A DNA stretch of 64,000 bases from Cyanobacteria bacterium P01_D01_bin.156 (GTDB lineage Bacteria; Cyanobacteriota; Cyanobacteriia; Phormidesmidales; Phormidesmidaceae). The position numbers and the translations under genes were made by a program. Where the stretch lies: contig JBCCQQ010000021.1 in assembly GCA_039024555.1 (NCBI GenBank), positions 22,454 through 86,453 of the forward strand. The letters are read 5' to 3'. The first letter of the stretch is position 1; every line of letters begins with the position of its first letter. Positions 38,519 through 50,854 of the stretch are shown here, piece by piece. The notes under the pieces were generated by a model. That model worked only from the letters and a program-made list of their open reading frames with translations, was not told the origin of the DNA and did no database searches.

Positions 38519-39154
38519 CTACTTTTTTTGAATTCTGTAACCACAGAGATTTTCACCCCTCACTAGCCAGTGCGTGCGCTCTACCTGACAGTCGGGGAGA
38601 GCCACTGCAAACATGGCTAGCTCATGGCCGCAGACCGCTGGATAAGATTCGACGACGTGGGAGATGGCGCAGTTATATTCGGTGATGATGTACGTATTAT
38701 CATCGTCACCCTGGTGTAGCTCAGCCATGTACCCTTCGGCCTGGCGTAACTCTACCAGCTGCTTTACCCGATCGGGCAGAGCGCCATTGCCAAGGGTTTC
38801 GCAATAACGTTGGGCCTTACGCTGCCACTGGTGACGTAGTAGCGCTCCCACTTGCTCAGCCCCTAAATCCTCAGCAATGGTATCCAGTAAGGAAACGGCA
38901 AACTGATCGTACTGAGAAGGAAATCGCTCGCGTCCCTTGGCACTTAGCTGGTAAATATAGTTAGGGCGACCCATGCCGGACTGCATTGCCTGATGCTCCA
39001 CCAGCTCCTCTGCCTGCAAATCTTTTAAGTGACGCCGAATCGCCTGGGGACTCACCCCCAGGCTACTGGCGAGGGTTTGAGCTGTTGCTTGACCAGATTT
39101 CAGCAAAAACTGGAGGATGTCTTCCTTGGTGGATGGCTGCTGCACTGACGTCAT
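38519..39154 (-). CDS. sufR: Fe-S cluster biogenesis repressor SufR
   Basis: N-terminal HTH 'SPQAIRRHLKDL', GRP, EYNC...C.HE...C; divergent from the suf operon. Confidence 0.95.
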   Translation of the reverse strand: MTSVQQPSTKEDILQFLLKSGQATAQTLASSLGVSPQAIRRHLKDLQAEELVEHQAMQSGMGRPNYIYQLSAKGRERFPSQYDQFAVSLLDTIAEDLGAEQVGALLRHQWQRKAQRYCETLGNGALPDRVKQLVELRQAEGYMAELHQGDDDNTYIITEYNCAISHVVESYPAVCGHELAMFAVALPDCQVERTHWLVRGENLCGYRIQKK

Positions 39155-39207
39155 CGGCTTGCGATCGCAATATTACAAACTGTAACAGTAAATCTAACTG
39201 GTCCTAC

Positions 39208-39231
39208 TTTAACAACATACCTGTTGCTAAA
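39208..39231. promoter_or_regulatory. SufR binding site 1
   Basis: CAAC-ATACCT-GTTG (39213-39226) inside an extended palindrome. Confidence 0.85.
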
Positions 39232-39263
39232 GTCTGCCAGCTGGACTACTCTTTAGAAAAGAG

Positions 39264-39287
39264 TTAAGCAACACGCATGTTGTTTAA
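39264..39287. promoter_or_regulatory. SufR binding site 2
   Basis: CAAC-ACGCAT-GTTG (39269-39282) inside an extended palindrome. Confidence 0.85.
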
Positions 39288-39328
39288 TTATAGAATCATC
39301 TGGTTGTCTCAGCACTCTTCATTCCCCC

Positions 39329-39688
39329 ATGACCTTAAGCAAACCCACACAGGCCAGCGACAAAAACCTTGAGCTGATGCGAAATTTTGCCCAGAGCTAT
39401 GCGAAGCGCACCGGCACTTACTTTTGTGCTGATCTCGGTGTTACTTCAGTTGTGCTTGAGGGGCTAGCAAAGCATAAGGATGACTTTGGTTCTCCCCTGT
39501 GCCCCTGCCGCCACTATGAAGATAAGGAAGCTGAGGTTAAGAGCACCTATTGGAACTGTCCCTGTGTGCCTATGCAGGAACGTCGCGAATGTCACTGCAT
39601 GCTTTTCCTGACCGAAGATAATGACTTTGCCGGTCAGGAGCAAGAGATTTCCTTCGACCGTATTCGTACTGAAACGAATAAATATTAG
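39329..39688 (+). CDS. ftrC: Ferredoxin-thioredoxin reductase catalytic subunit
   Basis: CPC...CPC...CHC motifs. Confidence 0.96.
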   Translation: MTLSKPTQASDKNLELMRNFAQSYAKRTGTYFCADLGVTSVVLEGLAKHKDDFGSPLCPCRHYEDKEAEVKSTYWNCPCVPMQERRECHCMLFLTEDNDFAGQEQEISFDRIRTETNKY

Positions 39689-39791
39689 TTAGTTGCGAAT
39701 CAATTAGTTGCGACAGCTGTTGGGGTTGATGTTGGTCACCCCAGGTTCACACCGTTTGTTTTGTATTCTCTCCAACCTCTCCGGTTAAGCC

Positions 39792-41228
39792 ATGAGCACT
39801 AGCGTTCAGTCCGTTGTCAGCCAGCCCTACAAGTACGGATTTGTTACTGATGTAGAATCCGATGTTATTCCTCGTGGGTTAAGCGAGGATATCATCCGTT
39901 TAATTTCCAAGAAAAAGAACGAGCCGGAGTTCATGCTGGAATTTAGGCTTAAGGCCTATCGTCAGTGGTTAAAGATGACGGAGCCCAGCTGGCCCAATGT
40001 GAACTATGAACCCATCAACTATCAGGACATCATCTACTACTCCGCACCCAAGCAAAGTGAAAAGCTTAAGAGCCTAGATGAGGTAGATCCAGAAATTCTA
40101 GCCACGTTTGAAAAGCTTGGTTTGCCACTATCTGAGCAAAAGCGGCTAACCAATGTAGCGGTAGATGCTGTCTTTGACAGTGTTTCCATTGCCACCACCT
40201 TTAAAGAAGAGCTGGCAGAGCACGGCATCATCTTTTGCTCAATTTCTGAAGCAGTTCAAGAGCATCCTGAACTTATTCAAAAGTACTTGGGTAGCGTTGT
40301 TCCGTCAGCGGATAACTATTTCACAGCCCTTAATTCAGCTGTATTTAGCGACGGCTCCTTTGTTTACATTCCTGAAAACACCCAGTGTCCCATGGACCTG
40401 TCCACCTACTTCAGGATCAACAACGGTGACTCAGGGCAGTTTGAGCGCACCCTAGTGGTCGCCGATAAAGGTAGCTCTGTTACCTATCTGGAGGGCTGTA
40501 CTGCTCCCATGTATGACAGTAATCAGCTCCATGCGGCAGTAGTTGAATTGGTGACCCTAGATGATGCCAAAATCAACTACTCTACGGTGCAAAACTGGTT
40601 TGCCGGTGACAAGAATGGCAAAGGCGGCATCTACAACTTTGTAACTAAGCGAGGGCTGTGTTCCGGTAAGAATTCCAAAATTTCCTGGACCCAGGTGGAA
40701 ACCGGCTCGGCTATTACTTGGAAGTATCCTAGCTGTGTGCTGGTGGGCGACAACTCCGTCGGTGAGTTTTATTCTGTAGCCCTGACCAACAACATGCAGC
40801 AGGCAGACACGGGTACCAAAATGATTCATGTGGGTAAGAACACCCGCAGCACCATTATTTCTAAAGGCATCTCGGCTGGCAACTCAAAGAACAGCTACCG
40901 TGGCTTGGTAAAAGTAGGTCCCAAAGCAGAGAATGCACGCAACTATTCCCAGTGTGATTCCATGCTGATTGGTGACACCTCCAATGCCAATACCTATCCC
41001 TACATTCAAGTACAGAACAATACGGGCCAGGTAGAACACGAAGCATCCACCTCCAAGATTGGAGAGGATCAACTATTCTATTTTGCCCAGCGAGGCATTT
41101 CTCCCGAAGATGCTGTTTCCATGATCATCAGCGGCTTCTGTCGTGATGTGTTTAATAAGCTTCCCATGGAGTTTGCCGCTGAAGCCGATAAGCTGCTAGC
41201 CCTAAAGTTGGAAAATTCTGTTGGCTAG
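39792..41228 (+). CDS. sufB: Fe-S cluster assembly protein SufB
   Basis: [43 protein letters not shown]. Confidence 0.97.
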
Positions 41229-41271
41229 CATTTAAAACTATCGATTTTGATACCCTTTGTCCCACCCTTAA

Positions 41272-42054
41272 ATGATTAATCCAGACGCAAAAACGATTCT
41301 CTCAGTTAAGGATCTTCGCGCTAGCGTAGACGGTACTGAGATCCTTAAAGGTCTCAATTTAGAGATCAAAGCCGGTGAGATCCATGCCGTCATGGGTTTG
41401 AATGGCTCTGGCAAAAGTACATTCTCTAAAGTACTCGCAGGCCACCCAGACTACGAGGTTACCAGTGGCACCATTGAATTTAATGGCAAGGATATTTCCG
41501 AGCTGGAGCCCCACGAGCGAGCAACGGCCGGTATTTTTCTAGCGTTTCAGTATCCCCTAGAAATTCCTGGGGTGAGCAACCGTGAGTTTTTGCGAGTAGC
41601 TTACAATTCCCACCGCAAAGCCCGTGGTAAGGACGAGATCGATGTATTTGACTTCGATGATCTCATCGAAGAGAAAACCGACATTGTCAAAATGGATGTT
41701 AGCTTTCTCGACCGCAGTGTGAACGAAGGCTTTTCCGGTGGTGAGAAAAAGCGCAATGAGATTTTGCAAATGGCGCTTTTGGAGCCCACGCTAGCGATTT
41801 TGGATGAAACCGATTCTGGTTTAGATATTGATGCCCTTAAGACGGTGGCTGAAGGCGTAAACAAATTGGCTACGCCGAATAGCGCCAACCTAGTGATTAC
41901 CCACTACCAGCGACTACTTAACTACATCGTGCCGGACTATGTCCACGTAATGTGTGGCGGTCAGATTATTAAGACCGGTAGCCGAGAGCTGGCGTTAGCC
42001 CTTGAAGCTAAGGGATATGAGTGGCTGCTAGAAGAACAGGCGGTGGCATCATGA
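41272..42054 (+). CDS. sufC: Fe-S cluster assembly ATPase SufC
   Basis: [38 protein letters not shown]. Confidence 0.97.
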
Positions 42055-43337
42055 GTAGCGTATCAACAGCCGTTGCCCAGCGCGATCGCTACCTAAGTGC
42101 ACTTTTAGCTCAAGCTACTGAAGCGGCTAGTCAGTCATCTTTGGCTATTGATAATCTACGGGCATCTGCACGGGCCTTGGTACAGGAACAAACGTTTCCT
42201 TCCAACCGAGCTGAAGAGTGGCGGTTTACTAATCTCTCTTCCATGTTGGAAACAGAGTTTCAAGTGCCGTCAGCACTGGAAGAATCAGCCATAGCCCAGG
42301 CTAAGGGATTACTAACAGATGTGAGTCTGGATGCCGTTGCCAGCAGACTTGTTTTTGTTAACGGCACCTACGTTGCAGAGCTGTCTCAGCTTGCCGCAGG
42401 CATTACCGTTTTTAGTCAGCTGGATAAGCTACCTGAGGGTCTAGCCCAGGTACGCGGTAGTAATGAGGTATTTACGGCCCTCAACACCGCTGGCTTTACG
42501 GATGGAGCCGTGGTGCAGGTCACTAAAAACACGGTACTGGAGCAGCCGGTACAGATTGTTTACCTCACCGTTGGTGACGCATTATTGGTTCAGCCACGCT
42601 GTCTAGTAATTGCTGAAACCGGCAGTGCATTGACGCTGATAGAAGAGTTTCACGGTGTAGGGGCGAGCTTTACCAACAGCGTTAGTGAGATCTGGGTGCA
42701 GGACAATGCTGAGGTTACTCACCTACGACTCCAGCAGGAATCTACAGAGACGGTTCACATTGGTAAAACGGCTGTTTCCCAAGCGCGCGACAGTCGTTAT
42801 CGCACTACTGCGATTAATCTCGGTGGTTCCATTGCCCGTCATAACCTAGAGGTTTACCAAACGGGGCCGCAGACAGAAACCACCCTCAACGGCCTAACCG
42901 CTATTGGTCAACAGCAGCTGGCGGATACCCACAGCTTAGTGGCGCTCACCCATCCCCACGGCACGGCTGACCAGCTCCAGAAAAATATTATGGACGACCA
43001 GTCCCATGGGGTATTTAACGGTAAAGTCTATGTGCCCCAACAGGCGCAGCTAACTAATGCATCGCAGCTGAATCGCAATCTGCTGCTGTCCTCTAAGGCG
43101 CGGGTGGACACTAAGCCAGAGCTAGACATTGTGGCGGATAATGTTAAGTGCGCCCACGGTGCGACCGTAAGTCAGCTGGCACCGGATGAGTTATTTTACT
43201 TGCAAAGCCGAGGCATCAACCGCGATCAGGCACAGCGGCTGCTTGTTTATGCCTTTGCGATGGAAATTATTGAGCCGCTCCCCGTGGCTCCCTTGCGCGA
43301 TCGCATGACCCAATACATTCAACAATGGACAGTGTAG
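42051..43337 (+). CDS. sufD: Fe-S cluster assembly protein SufD
   Basis: [28 protein letters not shown] overlap with sufC. Confidence 0.95.
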
Positions 43338-43339
43338 GC

Positions 43340-44605
43340 ATGACTCTAACAATGGCGAAACCCCTCGCTGATGAGGTCCGGGCGGATTTTCCGATTTTGG
43401 ATCAAACAGTGAATGGAAAGCCTCTGGTGTACTTTGACAATGCGGCCACATCGCAAAAGCCCAGGGCTGTTTTAGAGGCTTTGGAAAAGTATTACCAGCA
43501 GGATAATGCCAATGTTCATCGGGGTGTGCACACACTGAGCGCCAGAGCGACCGAAGCCTATGAGGCCACGCGAGATAAGGTAGCGGCATTTATTCACGCC
43601 AGCAGTCGCGACGAGATTGTTTTTACCCGCAATGCCAGTGAAGCGATCAACCTGGTGGCCTATGCCTGGGGATTAAACAATCTAGAGGCAGGGGATGAGG
43701 TCATTCTGTCGGTAATGGAGCACCACAGTAATTTGGTGCCCTGGCAGTTGGTGGCCCAGCGTACGGGGGCTGTGTTAAAGCATGTGCAGCTGACTGATGC
43801 GCAAGAGTTTGACTTAAACCATTTTAAGGAGCTACTGAGCGATCGCACCAGGCTAGTGGCTATTAACCATGTTTCTAATACCCTGGGCTGCATTAATCCA
43901 GTAGAAGAGGTTATACAGTTAGCCCATGATAACGGTGCCAAGGTGCTGATTGATGCCTGCCAAAGTATCCCCCACATGGTGGTGGATGTGCAGGCCATCG
44001 GCTGTGACTGGCTAGTGGCTTCGGGCCATAAGATGTGTGGTCCTACCGGGGCTGGTTTTCTCTATGGCAAGCTCGATATTCTCAATGCGATGCCGCCCTT
44101 CTTAGGTGGTGGCGAGATGATCCAGGATGTTTACTTGGATCATTCCACCTATGCAGAACTGCCCCACAAGTTTGAAGCCGGGACTCCCGCCATTGCGGAA
44201 GTGATTATGCTAGGTGCAGCCGTGGATTACCTCACGGGCATTGGCATGGAGCGCATTGCCCAGTATGAGCATGAGCTGACGCGGTATCTGTACGAGCGGC
44301 TGGCGGATATTCCCCAGGTGAATCTGTATGGCCCCCAACCAAAGGCAGATGGTAGTGGACGGGCTGCGATCGCAACATTTACGGTCAACAATCTCCATGC
44401 CCAAGATTTGTCTACATTTTTAGACCAGTCTGGTGTTGCTATTCGTTCGGGGCATCATTGTACTCAGCCCTTACACCGTATTCTAGGTGTAGATTCTACG
44501 GCCCGAGCTAGCCTTTACTTTTACAACACCTACGCTGAAATCGACAGCTTTGTTGCCGCGCTAAAAGACACTATCGAGTTCTTTGGCAATATTTTTGAAG
44601 ACTAG
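43340..44605 (+). CDS. sufS: Cysteine desulfurase SufS
   Basis: [27 protein letters not shown]. Confidence 0.97.
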
Positions 44606-44658
44606 GCTGTGAGGCGTTAACCTCAGAAGATTCTCTGGAAAGTGGCTACTAGCTTCTA

Positions 44659-44788
44659 GGCCCCCAACCTCGCAATCCTGGGGGCTTCAGAGACAGTACT
44701 GGGCAGGAAATCCTTTAAGTTAGTAGGGTCCTCATAGTTGAGATTTTTAATCTCGTTTCAAAGGCCCCAAAGTTTGGGATTGGGGGCT
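44659..44788. repeat. Degenerate C/G-run inverted repeat pair
   Basis: gcccccaacc..tcctgggggc and ggccccaaag..ttgggggc. Confidence 0.45.
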
Positions 44789-44935
44789 AAATGCTCTATG
44801 GCTTCACCGCACAACTTGGAAAGTTATAAACAGAGAGAAGTTAAAGCCGTTATTTTCAAGATTGTGATGAACGTGTTGGCGGGGTGTAAAACCGGTTGCT
44901 TGGGGCTCCTCCGAGTTCCCCAAACCCCTATGGGC

Positions 44936-44957
44936 AGGGCGGAAACCGCCGCCCTAC
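44936..44957 (-). repeat. GTAG-type REP-like palindrome
   Basis: Minus strand reads GTAG-GGCGG-cggttt-CCGCC-ct. Confidence 0.55.
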
Positions 44958-45252
44958 GACCCTCGGGCAAGAGGGCTTTGGTTAATAGCCTATTGGGTTG
45001 GGGGTGGTCGGTAAAGCGGTTTAGAATTTTACGCTCGGTCGCGCAAAATTCTAAAAAGGGTGATTCCATCGATGGTTTTCTAATCGATGCTCAAAGAAAG
45101 TTTTTTTACAGAGGTTTGATCTCCGTTCCAAGAATGCCAGACATGTCCATTAGACACTTTATGTTTTACGGTGTGGAGCATGATGGGTCGCAGCGTAACC
45201 CACATGACCAACTACTCCATCAATGGTTGTAGCGTTTAGCCAATAACCTCTT

Positions 45253-45447
45253 GTGCGACGGGAAACCCCAATATGCCTAAATGGGACGGCCTATATATTT
45301 CCGAGAAGGGACGTTGAGGTCCCCAGATCAGAGAGGTAAACCCCAGTTTGCCTAATTGGGAGAGCCTTGATACTTCCGAATAGGAGGGAAAGTCCTGAGC
45401 GTCCCTGTTCTCTATGTGCCGATGCTTAACCTTCCAAGTCGTTTCAC
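45253..45447 (+). ncRNA. Candidate structured RNA (or ssDNA element), family unassigned
   Basis: Nested stems with several G-U pairs on the + strand; duplicated 24-nt hairpin motif. Confidence 0.45.
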
Positions 45448-45661
45448 TGTCAGTGGTTTGGAGAAATGAATTCACCTTGCTAATCCTGCAGGACTTTGAA
45501 TCTTTTCTTTTTCCAAGATTAGTGAGCTTGAGGTACAAGCAACCAGTATTGGCTTTTTCGAGAAGACTACACAGGGTTAATAGCCACAAAAGTTAGCGAT
45601 TTGCGGCATATTCTGACGATGAATGCCATAGTCATGGAAAGTAGGTTTTCTATTTTAGGCT

Positions 45662-47932
45662 ATGGCTGATGATAAACCGTCAAGTCCTGAGCGTCGTTGG
45701 ATAGAGCATGCACTAAATGCATTTGCTCGTTGGGCTCCTCTGGGTGGTGGCGGATTTGCATTTGTTCATTTCCTCTCTCAGCAAGAATGGGGAATGTCCA
45801 TCTTGATGTTTCCAGTGACGGTAGTAACGGGCATCTGGGCAGCTTACACTGAAAATTTTGTAGCTCGATGCCGTGAGATTGCTAGTGAACGCGGACGCAA
45901 AGACGCTGATGCCATTGGTAATCGATTAAATCAAATAGATCAGGCCCTACAATGGCAGCTATCGGGTTTTGACGGCAAATATCTAGAACGGGTAAGCGCC
46001 GCCTGTTTGTATAGCGAGACCGAAGGCTATCGCCAGCCCGACGACATTAAGATCCCATTGCTAGAGGAGGTATTTGTCCCCCTCAAGTTTAGCGGCAGTG
46101 GCTTTAGCAAAAATGCCGCTGGGGATGTGGTGCCCTTTCAGATGGGAACCCAGTCAGAAGAGATTCAGAAACTGATGGGAAAACAGGGGAAGCAGGAGCC
46201 CTTAACCATTTGGGATATTCTCTCCCAGGCGAAGCAAGATCCGCGATTTCAATCGATTGCGATTTTAGCCTGGGGCGGGTTTGGTAAGACTACGCTAATG
46301 AAGCATCTGGCGTTTACCTATGCCCATAATCCTGGCAAAGTTAGAAGACTTAAAGCACCCAGGCTGATACCGGCACTGCTGTTCCTGAGAAAGTGGAAGC
46401 AGTTACTCACCCAGGAAACTCCGCCTACGTTACCCGAACTCATCGAAAACTATTACGTGCTAAGCCTGCCGGGGGCTGACGACTTGGCAATTCCTAAGGA
46501 CTGGGCAAAGACAGCCCTAGGCAATGGCAAACTGCTAGTGATGTTTGACGGCTTTGATGAAGTGGCCGAAGCGGATCGGCCCGCTATCAGTGAGTGGATT
46601 AGTGAGCAAATCCGCAACTACAGCGAGAGTGTTTTTATTCTCACCTCTCGACCGGGTGGCTATAAGCAATACACAGCCGAGAAACCTAAGACCAATGTGC
46701 TGGTAAATCCTTTTAACCAGGAACAACGGGAAGCGTTTGTTCGCAAGTGGTACGGCTGTCAGGAGCGCTATGGCCGCAGTCAGAGTAAGGAAAATGCTAT
46801 AGCTGTGGCGGCAATTGCTGACGAGAAAGCCAAAGATTTGTTGGAGCAAATAGAGGGCCGAGAAGAACTCCAGGCCATGGCAACCAATCCGCTGTTGCTA
46901 AATATGATTGCCACGTTTCATCGGTTTTATCCCGGCAGTGAGCTGCCCAGAAAGCGAGCAGAGCTGTATCAAGAGATTTGTCGGCTGCAGCTAGGGGATC
47001 GACCCAGGGCCAGACAGATTGATATGTTGTTGTCTACTGAGCATAGTCAACGGGTGTTGCAGTCCCTGGCGCTGGAGATGACTAAGCGAGAGGTGGAGAT
47101 TATTGCCTATGATGAGCTGCTGCCCCTGGTGGAGAGCTACGTAGCTAAGTTGGACGGTACCGTATTGGCAACAGAGCTAATTAAAAAGATCATTCGGGTG
47201 AGTGAGCTACTGGTGGAGCGGGAGCCCAGGGAGTATCAGTTTGCCCACAAGAGTTTGCAGGAGTATTTGACAGCGGCGGAAATTAAGCGTCAGGGGCTAG
47301 AGTCGTTATTGATTGAAAAGAATGAGGCTTGGCGAGGGACGGTGCTGCTATATGCGGCCCAGGTAACGCCGACAAGTTTGGTTGAAGGGCTGTGTGATGT
47401 GGGTGGAGAGCAGGCCCTGACCCTGGCCTATGACTGCTGGTACGAGAACCCGAAGCGGGTACCTGAGACGACCTATCGGCGGGTAATGGAGCTGAGCTAT
47501 GGGGTGTTAGAAGGGTATATGCGGGAGCGGCAGTGGCGAAAAGCAGATAACTACACCTATCGGGTAATGGTACAGGTGTGTAAACAGGAGTCTTATCTAT
47601 TGCTTGATAATTTACGAAACTTTCCCTGTGAGGACTTGAATAGACTTGATGACCTATGGCTGAAGTACAGCAATAACCAGCTAGGCTTTAGTGTACAGAA
47701 GGAAATTTGGGTTGATGTGGGTGGTAAGCTGGACTTTGGTAGGGATGGCACATCCGCAGTGAAGGCATTTGAAAAACTTGGAGACCAGGTCGGCTGGCGT
47801 ATTGATGGCAGCTACAACTTTCAAGGCCTTTATGATTTTCCAGAAAAAAAACCTGGGAGCCTCCCATCAGTAGATGTGGCGGGGGGTTGGCGGGGCGGTC
47901 TCTTCTCTCGCATCCAGGCTTGCAAAGTGTAA
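45662..47932 (+). CDS. TM-NACHT (STAND) NTPase with C-terminal GUN4 domain
   Basis: Hydrophobic N-terminus; Walker A GGFGKTT, Walker B FDGFDE, LTSRP, NPLLL, FAH.SLQEY; GUN4 'WRKAD..T','FPCEDL..LD.LW.KYS....GFSVQK.IW','VGWR','GSLP','LFSR...C'. Confidence 0.9.
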   Translation: MADDKPSSPERRWIEHALNAFARWAPLGGGGFAFVHFLSQQEWGMSILMFPVTVVTGIWAAYTENFVARCREIASERGRKDADAIGNRLNQIDQALQWQLSGFDGKYLERVSAACLYSETEGYRQPDDIKIPLLEEVFVPLKFSGSGFSKNAAGDVVPFQMGTQSEEIQKLMGKQGKQEPLTIWDILSQAKQDPRFQSIAILAWGGFGKTTLMKHLAFTYAHNPGKVRRLKAPRLIPALLFLRKWKQLLTQETPPTLPELIENYYVLSLPGADDLAIPKDWAKTALGNGKLLVMFDGFDEVAEADRPAISEWISEQIRNYSESVFILTSRPGGYKQYTAEKPKTNVLVNPFNQEQREAFVRKWYGCQERYGRSQSKENAIAVAAIADEKAKDLLEQIEGREELQAMATNPLLLNMIATFHRFYPGSELPRKRAELYQEICRLQLGDRPRARQIDMLLSTEHSQRVLQSLALEMTKREVEIIAYDELLPLVESYVAKLDGTVLATELIKKIIRVSELLVEREPREYQFAHKSLQEYLTAAEIKRQGLESLLIEKNEAWRGTVLLYAAQVTPTSLVEGLCDVGGEQALTLAYDCWYENPKRVPETTYRRVMELSYGVLEGYMRERQWRKADNYTYRVMVQVCKQESYLLLDNLRNFPCEDLNRLDDLWLKYSNNQLGFSVQKEIWVDVGGKLDFGRDGTSAVKAFEKLGDQVGWRIDGSYNFQGLYDFPEKKPGSLPSVDVAGGWRGGLFSRIQACKV

Positions 47933-48045
47933 CAGATAAGGCTTTTCGAGAATCATAAACAATTATTTCAGGGGCTAGATTCACCATTTTTCAGGGGTTT
48001 CTTCCACTCGATACCTGGCACCAGAAGGTTCTTTTAAGGTTCTTT

Positions 48046-48786
48046 TTACTTCTCTGGACGTTTATTCGCTTCGATAAATTTCTCGGTAACTCGCTTCACC
48101 TCATCTCGTTCTTCAACGCGGGCGTTTTCCCAAAGTTCCTGCTGCCCTGGCGAGGGTTTGCGTTTCCCTTTTTTTGGGATTAACCCCTTCAAAAGCTGGC
48201 TTCCCCAAGTACGCTTACGGTCTATTTTGGGCTTAGGCTGATACCTCACACAAAACCGCTTATAAGCTTCTGCACATTCATCCAAGCTAGCCCCCAGGTC
48301 TAAAAATGCTGGATGCCATTGGGTCAAACCATCCTGGGTTAATTGGTCATAGGTGCCATAGTTACTGAAATCATAGAAAAAGCCTCGCTGCATATTGGCC
48401 GCTTTAGGGTTGGCATGGATATACCGAATCGTATTCAATGCTCGACGATAGTCATTTCTGGGAAAACCACTGCTGTGATATCGCTTTTCCCAAAAGTGTC
48501 CTGTCCGATTGAGCATGCGATTAAAACACATCGCTGTATACCAATTTAGCCAATGCATCACATGGGATAAATCCTGGGGTTGTTGCGGTTCGATCAAATA
48601 ATGCACATGATTACTCATAATGCAGAGTGCATAAAGCTTAAAGCCATATTTTTTCTGACATTGCTGAATGGCATAGAGTAATACTGACCGACATTCATAG
48701 CGCAACAATCGAAATTCTCGATTGTTGCAACGAATAGTGATGTGATAACAAAAATTAGGGCAGAAAATACGATTAGGTCGTGACAT
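48046..48786 (-). mobile_element. REP-associated tyrosine transposase (RAYT; Y1/HUH, IS200-like fold)
   Basis: YHIT.R.NN, CIMSNHVHYL (HUH), GHFWE.RY, YIHANP (catalytic Tyr), 'FSNY' tail; no tnpB and no IS ends. Confidence 0.88.
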
Positions 48787-48787
48787 T

Positions 48788-48879
48788 ATTCAACCAACGT
48801 AGGAATGTTGGGTTAATACAATTGTTGGAATCGTATGACGGAATTCAATGGTAGGCAACCTAACCCACGTTTGTTGAAT
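48788..48879. repeat. Long imperfect inverted repeat filling the spacer upstream of the RAYT
   Basis: attcaaccaacgt...gttgggtt ... aacctaac...acgtttgttgaat; GTAG tetranucleotides in both arms. Confidence 0.6.
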
Positions 48880-48880
48880 T

Positions 48881-50854
48881 TTAAGGAGCAGCAAAAAGCT
48901 GTACCGATTTCTGAGCTGTTTTGGTATCTTCTGTTTGTTGCCAAATTTCTTGAAATGTCTGCTCTCCAATAGATAATTCTGACTCTAACGGAGCGTCAAT
49001 ATCTCGGGAAGCGGTAAACATCACTAGGCAAGGCTTAAACCTGCCATAGCGTCCCTCGGTCTGTAAAGGTGCCGACTCATTACTCACACCGACATGCTGC
49101 GCCCTAAATCCACGCCGTGGTGCATCCAATAGCTGCCAGTAGGGATACTCAAACGAGATATTCTCAAATACCATACCCACATCAGAACAGCTTTGATTAG
49201 TAATCTGTTCAGTGGCATTGGTATAAATCTTCTCTAGGGCTGGCTGAGTCTTAAAATATTGTGCAGGCCGAGTATTTGTAAAAATGTTGTTTTCTCCTGC
49301 CATTGGTCGCACCTGGTTATAAAACACCCATTGGAACGACAGCAAGACTAACCCAATAGTTAACAGATTTACAATTCTGCGGTTTAGAGTATTTCCTAGA
49401 ACCGTGCCCACCAATGCTGCAAATATAATAAAAATGGGCAAATGCAATCGACAGCGGGCCGAAGACCAGGTCAGTAGCTGACAAAATAAAAGAAAGGTAC
49501 CTGTTGTTGTCAGCCAATAGAGAAACAACCGTCGCCGCTGCTTTAAGCGACCATTAATTAACAACAGCCCAGACGCAAGTAAAATAACCGCCAGATGCAG
49601 TGGATTCCCTGCCTTGTCTTCATTAAAGGATAACCCTGGCACATAGAATCGTGGATCTTTCGCACTGGTAATTAGGGGCTCATTAACATCTACACCCATA
49701 ACCTCGTGCAGGATTTTCACTAGCTTTTCGACAATGCCAGTGATGGGGGTAATGAAGCCTTCTAAATGCAGATTTCTGACAATGTCGGCATGGAGGGCCA
49801 GGTTTCTAGATACGTTAGAGATTAAATAGCGAATGCCAAAAGCGGCTCCAGTTTCATCCGGTACTCCCAAGGGGGAGCCAAACAGTAGTACATTGCGCAG
49901 GTAGTGCCCACCATTAATAAACAGCACAATGCCCATCACCCACACCATGGGCGCAATCATGCGCCAGCCTAAATGTCGAATGCCCCACAGCAGCAGCCAT
50001 AGGCAAAAGGGGAAGGCATAAATATAGGCTGTCCCTTTAGATAAAATGGCTAACCCAAGACTTGCCCCTAGGCACACCAGCGGTAGTATCCGAATGCCCT
50101 GCCGCATGATCAATAGGGCAAAGTAAATAAAGCACACCATCCATAGGGCAACGACGTGATCGTTATTGGTGCTTGAGCCCTGCAACACGGCCATGGGCAG
50201 GGTGCCGCTGAAAATGGCCGCTAAAATTTGGCCGTTGCGATTAGCGCCTAGTTCCTTGGCGATTAAGGAGACACCAAATAGGCTGCCAATCATGCTGATC
50301 CACTGAACACAGCCGCTAAAGCGATCGCTATTACTAAGGAGCTGTAGATGAGCGATCGCAAACTCGGACCAAGGATTCTGATATAGCTGAAATATATCGT
50401 GGGTGGGATAGTGAGCCACCGACTCGTTCTGAATCCAATGCATCACTCGGCTCAGATGGTACTCCATTGAATCCGAGTGATTAGGGGCTGCCACCACCGC
50501 TGTGATGCCAATGGCCAGCAGGGCTAGAGTCATACCCACCGTCGATAGCTTTAGAGTCCACGGCAGCTCAATAAATGCATAGGGACTGAACCACTGCTTG
50601 GGGGTAGATTTAATCACCCGTAAGCCATAGGCACGCCATGAAAAGAATGCCAGCCCTATGGTTATCAGCAACCAAGCCAGCGTTAGAAAAAGACTGTTAA
50701 ACCCACGTACCAGGCTTAACCCTTCAGTCAGTACCGTTACGATTACGGCCCAGGCCATCAATCCGAATAGTAAGGCTTCTCGGTTGTAACGAAACAGCCT
50801 GGAACCAATGAGTACAAGCAGAACAAGACTCGCGATGGGAAAGATGACGGCCAT
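48881..50854 (-). CDS. Polytopic GT-C (ArnT/PMT-like) glycosyltransferase
   Basis: PN..DS..YHL.RV.HW.QN, many TM helices, LSKGT. Confidence 0.8.
   Translation of the reverse strand: MAVIFPIASLVLLVLIGSRLFRYNREALLFGLMAWAVIVTVLTEGLSLVRGFNSLFLTLAWLLITIGLAFFSWRAYGLRVIKSTPKQWFSPYAFIELPWTLKLSTVGMTLALLAIGITAVVAAPNHSDSMEYHLSRVMHWIQNESVAHYPTHDIFQLYQNPWSEFAIAHLQLLSNSDRFSGCVQWISMIGSLFGVSLIAKELGANRNGQILAAIFSGTLPMAVLQGSSTNNDHVVALWMVCFIYFALLIMRQGIRILPLVCLGASLGLAILSKGTAYIYAFPFCLWLLLWGIRHLGWRMIAPMVWVMGIVLFINGGHYLRNVLLFGSPLGVPDETGAAFGIRYLISNVSRNLALHADIVRNLHLEGFITPITGIVEKLVKILHEVMGVDVNEPLITSAKDPRFYVPGLSFNEDKAGNPLHLAVILLASGLLLINGRLKQRRRLFLYWLTTTGTFLLFCQLLTWSSARCRLHLPIFIIFAALVGTVLGNTLNRRIVNLLTIGLVLLSFQWVFYNQVRPMAGENNIFTNTRPAQYFKTQPALEKIYTNATEQITNQSCSDVGMVFENISFEYPYWQLLDAPRRGFRAQHVGVSNESAPLQTEGRYGRFKPCLVMFTASRDIDAPLESELSIGEQTFQEIWQQTEDTKTAQKSVQLFAAP

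Follow-up and report, generated by a model that had tools for sequence, protein, structure and literature searches.

The window analysed here is a 64-kb stretch of contig JBCCQQ010000021.1 from Cyanobacteria bacterium P01_D01_bin.156 (6.6-Mb genome, 99.08% complete, hereafter G000), and it contains a NACHT-GUN4 gene and a Y1 HUH gene that lie tail to tail. The NACHT-GUN4 gene (plus strand, 45662..47932), defined by its open reading frame (ORF) and a domain scan (PF05729, PF05419), encodes 756 amino acids (aa), with a hydrophobic stretch at the N-terminus, a NACHT NTPase at aa 206-363 and a C-terminal GUN4 domain at aa 610-739. The Y1 gene (minus strand, 48046..48786) encodes a class 2 Y1 HUH protein of 246 aa, TnpA-REP/RAYT-like, with a Y1_Tnp domain and a fold match to 4ER8. 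Here we describe a short variable tip at the 3' end of the NACHT-GUN4 gene, its replacement between close relatives and its linkage to the Y1 gene and to a 10-base motif, and we weigh the proposal that the Y1 protein rewrites the tip.

The target gene and the Y1 gene

The 756-aa protein joins a NACHT module to a C-terminal sensor domain, as do the bacterial NLR-related (NACHT) defence proteins, and it is predicted from sequence to be an immune-type sensor; searches against anti-phage families gave weak matches only, all below cut-off. In the AlphaFold2 (AF2) model the GUN4 domain has a predicted local distance difference test score (pLDDT) of 90 and matches GUN4 structures with template modelling (TM) scores of 0.65-0.76, the tip-bearing block has a pLDDT of 62, and the tail is modelled as a helix.

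By its motifs and fold the Y1 protein is a class 2 TnpA-Y1 (TnpA-REP/RAYT-like) enzyme. It carries H60-V-H62 (HuH) and Y122-I-H-A-N-P (Y---NP), both hallmarks of class 2 TnpA-Y1, and at least 95% of the aligned Y1 proteins retain the catalytic residues. Its AF2 model (pLDDT 72.8) has E. coli TnpA-REP as best structural match in the Protein Data Bank (4ER8, E 6.6e-6), and it scores 71.4 on NF047646 (REP-associated tyrosine transposase), below the curated cut-off of 80. A clamp-type motif, QxxL[W/F/P], lies at aa 215-219 (48130-48144) and is present in 87 of 90 GUN4-facing, 12 of 12 picocyanobacterial and 0 of 3 cyanobactin-facing Y1 proteins. Of the traits of subclass 2.1/TIRYT (a C-terminal helix-turn-helix or DnaA-like domain, and terminal inverted repeats), no Pfam helix-turn-helix match was obtained, though the C-terminal part of the AF2 model is of low confidence. 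The initial annotation had begun the gene at 48879, where the real start is 48786; its description of an intact RAYT-like gene without insertion sequence (IS) ends or tnpB was borne out by ORF and flank analysis, and no tnpB-sized ORF lies beside the gene in the window. Beside Y1 no family of REP (repetitive extragenic palindromic) hairpin repeats was found, nor were tetranucleotide-foot repeats, and the module has no conserved 5' end, the best upstream 8-mer occurring in 19 of 77 loci as against 68 of 77 downstream. Membership of IS200/IS605 was rejected on the lack of two hairpin-bearing ends, of a Y---Q motif and of tnpB, and membership of the REPtrons on the lack of flanking REP hairpins.

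A variable tip between conserved flanks

The GSLP codons (47855..47866, plus strand) form the left anchor of the variable region; they read GHLP in most relatives, and their proline aligns with Pro208 of Synechocystis GUN4. The variable region itself (SVDVAGGWRGG, 47867..47898, plus strand) is G/T-rich and variable in length. When the Gun4 protein of G000 is aligned to 1Y6I, the tip begins after the Pro208 equivalent and takes the place of the segment with Arg214 and Arg217 in canonical GUN4, of which Arg214 is called essential for porphyrin binding in a passage of PMC1084334. At 51 fully parsed loci the span from GxLP to the tail is 24-148 nucleotides (nt), with a median of 54.

To the right of the tip lies a tail that is conserved as DNA and readable in three frames (47899..47940, plus strand). 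Its stops are set 7 nt apart; here they are TAA at 47930-47932 and 47937-47939, and the third (47923-47925) is CAA in this lineage. The tail gives each frame a short ending plus a stop; of 163 tails, 160, 159 and 156 in the respective frames reach it within 16 codons. The +1 frame, SLLSHP[D/G]L, is the one that resembles canonical Gun4. LFSR..C had been taken for a single conserved end, but three frames are in use (13, 15 and 23 of the 51 loci).

A spacer of fixed length and moderate conservation (47941..48011, plus strand) then leads to the motif TACCTGGYAC (48012..48021, plus strand), the putative Y1 recognition site, at a distance of 106 nt from the tail's TCTCGC. Among 84 parsed loci, tail and motif were both recognised by the thresholds set here in 69, and one of them was lacking in 15; the spacing was 106 or 107 nt in 67 of the 69. 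The spacer holds no conserved hairpin on either strand; at 41 loci no consensus structure was found between tail and motif (mean folding z 0.33 and 0.12), and there was no Rfam match in 44500-49500. No REP-like hairpin was found. Two palindromes had also been proposed as signals. GGGAG-C-CTCCC (GGGAGCCTCCC) is indeed present at 47855-47865 and GATACCTGGCACCAG at 48010-48024, 78 nt past the stop, but three orthologous loci break the first and the bases after CTGGCAC vary in the second, and the conserved element is TACCTGGYAC. GGGAGCCTCCC was also rejected as a terminator, its terminator-like score on the minus strand being at chance level.

Composition was assessed on 167 distinct tips, pooled, with one mis-parsed locus, N-containing tips and duplicates dropped. 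The median G+T content is 0.75, compared with 0.51 upstream, and the bias is the same at every codon position. The encoded residues (G 19%, V 11%, L 9%, W 8%) agree with the G/W/V-rich tips supposed in the initial annotation. In-frame stops occur in 6 of the 167, as against 80 and 79 in the two other frames. The stretch without adenine at 47875-47911, with G at 17 of its first 25 nt, is as first described and is the longest such run on the plus strand of the window (37 nt, the next 32), but 13 of its bases (47899-47911) fall in the conserved tail, outside the variable part. Across the tips C (0.11) is scarcer than A (0.16), so the lack of A is not their defining bias, and the suggestion of an adenine bias like that of diversity-generating retroelements (DGRs) is not upheld.

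Left-flank sequence is copied exactly over at least 10 nt in 12 tips and right-flank sequence in 6, compared with less than 0.1% of shuffles, and internal direct repeats of at least 10 nt, far above shuffles, are present in 21. Two loci (L144 and L260) are identical at 100 of 100 upstream bases and over the tip's first 44 nt, and then diverge. No cut dinucleotide was prominently depleted in tips (CT 0.92). In the assembly with locus L073 a run of N spans exactly the variable region, as mixed tips in a sample would give.

Replacement of tips between close relatives

At three congeneric loci orthologous to this one, identity is 79-82% over NACHT, 70-84% over GUN4, 93-100% over the tail and 82-84% over Y1, and only 30-33% over the tip. 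P0114 and P0115, two orthologues of the gene that their sources assign to a single species, match at 98.0% over 738 aa, and their tips are unrelated and read in different frames; for the Y1 proteins next to them in accession number the identity is 97.6%. The same is found among five paralogous copies (L118, L119, L138), in which the flanks are 96.7-100% identical and the tips, of 15-86 nt, are 11-49% identical and unalignable; in a sixth, older paralogue beside them the flanks have diverged.

A cluster look-up was made for 28 proteins, most of which were singletons or absent; it gave nine GUN4 clusters with at least two parsed tips, and one further cluster was left unparsed. Tips differ wholesale in five of the six clusters whose query locus has an adjacent Y1 (5 tips among 7; 2 of 2; 13 among 15 listed of 89; 3 of 3; 2 of 2). 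None of the three clusters without Y1 in the query genome changes wholesale, the tips being the same or 1-2 residues apart where the bodies differ by 2-11%.

Linkage was scanned with one genome per species; 311 relatives were found, and the figures are from the best 80. The GUN4 domain faces a Y1 gene within 430 bp in 73 of the 80, and in 72 of 74 loci with at least 800 bp of flank, and, with up to one mismatch allowed, TACCTGGYAC occurs at 72 of 73 Y1-linked GUN4 loci. The initial annotation had supposed that a RAYT diversifies the tip. The hypervariation confined to the tip, the conserved motif downstream and the linkage to this Y1 clade were all found when looked for, while the palindromes, the hairpin, the single LFSR..C end and the adenine bias fell away.

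In 301 genomes across the phylum the two-part pattern of tail and motif was found in 28 (reversed control 0), Y1 in 32 (threshold E 1e-30) and both in 11. Many motif-only loci retain a 3' remnant of Y1, and among 103 tails parsed from metagenomes 53 have no motif at the expected place, few of them because of contig ends; relics of the unit are therefore common. No locus was confirmed in viral contigs.

G000 itself has 7 GUN4 matches and 6 Y1 matches. Each of its three full copies of this Y1 clade (contigs C21, C6 and C40) faces a GUN4 gene that is preceded by NACHT similarity. On C60 a fourth GUN4 gene still has the tail and the motif, with a Y1 3' remnant that is broken by an unrelated RAYT; the latter (L003:224-799) carries GGTGGGCACTGCCCACC-type palindromes. 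The canonical Gun4 (C38) and a NACHT-GUN4 gene on C121 have neither motif nor Y1. The C121 gene (L004, 4740-5000) has a worn tail copy and a tip of ordinary base composition, and is probably an old relic.

Other targets of the same Y1 family

The proposed Y1 diversification system is not limited to GUN4; at least four unrelated target classes are faced. A phylum search gave 64 Y1 units, whole or partial, with a chance motif occurrence of about 0.05 per unit. The target was GUN4 in 22 (motif in 19), a protein of about 330 aa ending in RDVRVHD in 16 (14), a cyanobactin-type precursor in 5 (5), a Nif11- or CCRG-2-like precursor in 5 (2), and another or none in 16 (5). Two of the cyanobactin precursors score as TIGR04446 and stand next to a PatA/PatG-family protease, and one Nif11 precursor scores as TIGR03798. 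The precursors at L264, L267 and L283 we take to be cyanobactin-like.

TIGR04446 matches were found in 7 of 121 genomes, and in 6 of these 7 this Y1 or its 3' piece lies beside the precursor. Among 16 cyanobactin precursors the motif stands about 110-117 nt past the stop in 9, as a degenerate copy in 4 and not at all in 2, and the one left has a premature stop and the motif at 148 nt. Precursor copies of piricyclamide/anacyclamide type (L132:3853-4810, L133, L323-L338) are each followed by a Y1 3' remnant, and for this class the motif falls within the coding end of Y1. For Nif11 precursors, parsed from 18 loci, the motif was found in 11 of 22.

The RDVRVHD family is picocyanobacterial, with many copies per genome, each ending in RDVRVHD and a variable, often Cys-containing tip; loci facing the same Y1 family with the motif are L120-L125, L271-L275, L279 and L289. 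The protein has no Pfam or NCBIfam match. Some look-alike Atlas clusters have IAT_beta on 43% of members, which we note as a lead. Short ORFs that start MAMRSLP and have a variable middle face Y1 pieces at L278 and L281, and Y1 copies at L128:4518, L129 and L286 face an NHLP bacteriocin exporter region, a low-complexity stretch or a 555-aa gene. In a quick, unrooted tree of 116 Y1 proteins, with the outgroup left out, those facing cyanobactin precursors form one supported group amid the GUN4-facing proteins, and those of picocyanobacteria stand apart as a distant group.

Discussion

With a probability of roughly 0.6, in our judgement, a domesticated Y1 HUH enzyme rewrites a short 3' segment of the gene that it faces, in this case the predicted ligand-binding tip of a NACHT-GUN4 protein. 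That Y1 causes the tip variation we consider somewhat more probable. The best reading that we infer is a nick initiated by Y1 followed by error-prone rejoining.

The bond that HUH enzymes form is to the 5' end and leaves a free 3'-OH. That these enzymes cut single strands by way of a phosphotyrosine and then rejoin them is set out in a portion of bioRxiv 10.1101/279083. A tentative course of steps follows, of which those on the strand itself, from nick to rejoining, we judge less likely than not. The Y1 protein would bind TACCTGGYAC, probably at the replication fork by way of the clamp-type motif, make a nick in the coding strand close to the variable region's right edge and remain on the 5' end, so that the right edge would stay fixed. 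The free 3' end would be trimmed, slip on nearby sequence and gain mostly G/T bases from a host polymerase; Y1 would then rejoin the strand, and selection would discard tips with early stops. If the coding strand is cut at the right edge, this would account for the sharpness of the right boundary, for left-flank duplications being the commoner and for pairs whose tips agree in their left part alone. The motif is about 113 nt away from the end of the variable stretch, so TACCTGGYAC fits a putative Y1 binding site better than a cut site.

Several observations weigh against rewriting by Y1, or against its being one uniform process. The polarity of tip change rests on two pairs. HUH enzymes cut and join and are not known to add bases, and a base-adding enzyme was not found in the genomes searched: Ku had no match in G000, LigD and PolX had none in five of five genomes, and a Y-family polymerase was matched in only three of the five. 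Divergence is also raised in the 86 nt before the tip (55-60% identity at the three orthologous loci). The G/T bias is weak or absent outside GUN4 (G+T 0.56 in cyanobactin cores, 0.55 in Nif11 cores, 0.49 in RDVRVHD tips), the distance from variable edge to motif differs by target class (about 113, 144 and roughly 75-80 nt), and the cyanobactin-facing Y1 group is without the clamp-type motif.

The contrast between loci with and without Y1 comes from a small sample in which Y1 status was scored on the query and mostly not on the cluster members. The sixth Y1-adjacent cluster consists of two records with identical bodies and tips one residue apart, and identical tips recur across records even where the motif is intact (L242/L017; L234 and L038), so rewriting is not constant. 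In the most variable cluster, the query copy L135 has itself lost the motif; L164, L183, L191 and L237 share a single motif loss but differ in their tips, with about 86% likeness upstream in those of their pairs that passed the flank filter. Among the 28 motif-bearing genomes, 17 had no Y1 match. No variant tip was seen within a sample, where one identical contig was found, from contigs only, which drop rare variants.

One alternative, which we think unlikely, is a one-ended mobile module in which Y1 copies the GUN4 domain, the tail, the motif and part of itself, and the tip is a by-product, a scar left where copying or conversion was imprecise. Unrelated N-termini are fused to the module (NACHT 22, TIR 8, caspase 7, kinase 2, AAA_35 1 and none found 2, n=42), identical Y1 copies stand in tandem at L118, Y1 3' remnants follow most cyanobactin precursor copies, and there are up to nine matches per genome. 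Its mobility is likely real, yet it leaves change in place unexplained. Against this alternative, tips change at the same locus between strains, three-frame stops and the depletion of in-frame stops point to a product that is used, several host families are grouped together in the tree, and the unit has the conserved sequence at its downstream side alone. Spreading and rewriting may both be true.

A little less likely again is a contingency locus independent of Y1, at which G-rich DNA prone to slippage or quadruplex formation varies by recombination under diversifying selection and Y1 only travels along. The G runs and the internal direct repeats of tips would suit it, as would the tips that differ in some motif-less lineages and the quadruplexes predicted in the procA preprint (bioRxiv 10.1101/2020.03.09.984088). 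Equally G/T-rich tips are nevertheless frozen in the three Y1-less clusters, and slippage explains neither why a motif beyond the gene stands at a fixed distance nor why targets that are not G-rich carry it too. Capture of tips from elsewhere in G000 is not indicated either, the longest matches being 12-15 nt, not longer than in shuffles.

It is improbable that mutation of the tip is due to an unlinked host factor with the motif as its binding site, Y1 being a helper or spreader of sites. A second enzyme is needed anyway, as HUH enzymes are not known to add bases, and genomes with the motif only do exist; the motif-only loci examined are static, however, and the repair enzymes sought were missing or patchy, as given above. 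Least credible of all is that the tip is the remote target of a DGR, for although an A-poor 3' stretch follows N-terminal domains like those of DGR targets, RVT_1 had no match in G000, G223, G193 and G287 (there were matches in G071 and G141), no template-like match of at least 30 nt was found in G000 for any of four tips, tips vary in length and frame, and they hold less C than A. At this locus a DGR was rejected on the lack of a reverse transcriptase (RT) match in G000, of a template and of an adenine-specific bias; 25-nt template candidates in G000 were dismissed as A-rich and scattered.

Rewriting by Y1 has its closest precedent in marine picocyanobacteria, in which tnpA_REP faces procA, the prochlorosin precursor gene; Laurenceau et al (bioRxiv 10.1101/2020.03.09.984088) proposed a diversifying role, called the link unique to these organisms and called the origin of prochlorosin core diversity unknown. 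Their preprint describes a hairpin and a quadruplex and no recognition sequence beyond these, and an added note finds the evidence strong neither for nor against a causal role; it also reports no phylogenetic link between the adjacent genes, a further point against our proposal. The procA pairs and the GUN4 unit alike are tail to tail at a conserved intergenic distance, have many transposase 3' remnants and show indel-rich variation in one segment with conserved flanks. The picocyanobacterial Y1 clade of our survey faces Nif11 precursors, next to a hairpin that resembles the preprint consensus; its proteins are 42-47% identical to GUN4-facing Y1, form a sister clade (support 100, quick tree) and share the motif. 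Beyond the procA proposal we find at least four unrelated target classes and a common 10-base motif, and for the GUN4 class a three-frame tail and a natural contrast with and without Y1, which that proposal lacked.

Like the REPtrons (TnpA-REP/RAYT, E. coli 4ER8; class 2 TnpA-Y1 in the portion consulted of Quentin et al, bioRxiv 10.1101/279083), the unit has HuH and Y---NP motifs, low copy number and no IS ends; unlike them it has no REP hairpin or conserved fold, a one-sided motif and an obligate facing partner gene. It resembles the DGRs on CLec-tipped NACHT, TIR, caspase and kinase proteins, as described in sections of PMC10907252 and PMC7517822, in its 3' variable region on a ligand-binding domain and its downstream cis element, and differs from them in having no RT or template repeat, no adenine specificity, changes of length and frame, and the GUN4 fold. 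The unit works like a DGR but is not one; it belongs with the tnpA_REP/procA pairs, themselves a proposed kind.

Cyanobacterial NACHT-GUN4 proteins of the same architecture are predicted to sense tetrapyrroles in passages of bioRxiv 10.1101/2022.07.19.500537 and PMC7159879. Here the segment of the porphyrin-binding Arg214/Arg217 (part of PMC1084334) is the very part that is replaced, which suggests that the GUN4 fusions are variable-ligand sensors and not tetrapyrrole sensors.

For cyanobactins, sections of PMC3428304, PMC4663559 and PMC6162287 describe precursor cores of 7-17 residues, frameshifted precursors and 19 precursor genes in one bloom sample, and those sections give no mechanism for core diversity. 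In parts of PMC4663559 and PMC6162287 a 'transposase' is placed between the E and F genes of two cyanobactin clusters and is there given no role or motif. In openly accessible listings of papers, none was found that describes the GUN4 link, the motif or a tie to cyanobactins. On the broadest form of the proposal we are evenly divided: one HUH family and one 10-base site, graftable behind any gene, might constitute a general RT-free generator that writes untemplated sequence into a fixed window, diversifying GUN4-tipped immune sensors and supplying the hypervariable cyanobactin and prochlorosin cores, a junctional diversity in bacteria. Few mechanisms are known that target variation to one gene segment in bacteria. 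The unit is small and tractable, with a single enzyme of 246 aa, a single site of 10 bases, a fixed distance and sequencing as the read-out, and it suggests that a compact in vivo peptide diversifier occurs in nature.

Flanking genes and minor observations

At locus L079 the NACHT protein has a weak FGE-sulfatase (CLec-type) match directly before its GUN4 domain, placing a DGR-type domain and this system in a single gene. In the window the NACHT-GUN4/Y1 unit sits just downstream of ORFs at 38519-44605, which by their sequences look like sufR, a ferredoxin-thioredoxin reductase subunit and sufBCDS; the window's final base is also the end of the contig. A pair of imperfect 50-nt direct repeats, 75 nt apart, precedes the NACHT gene (45260-45384).

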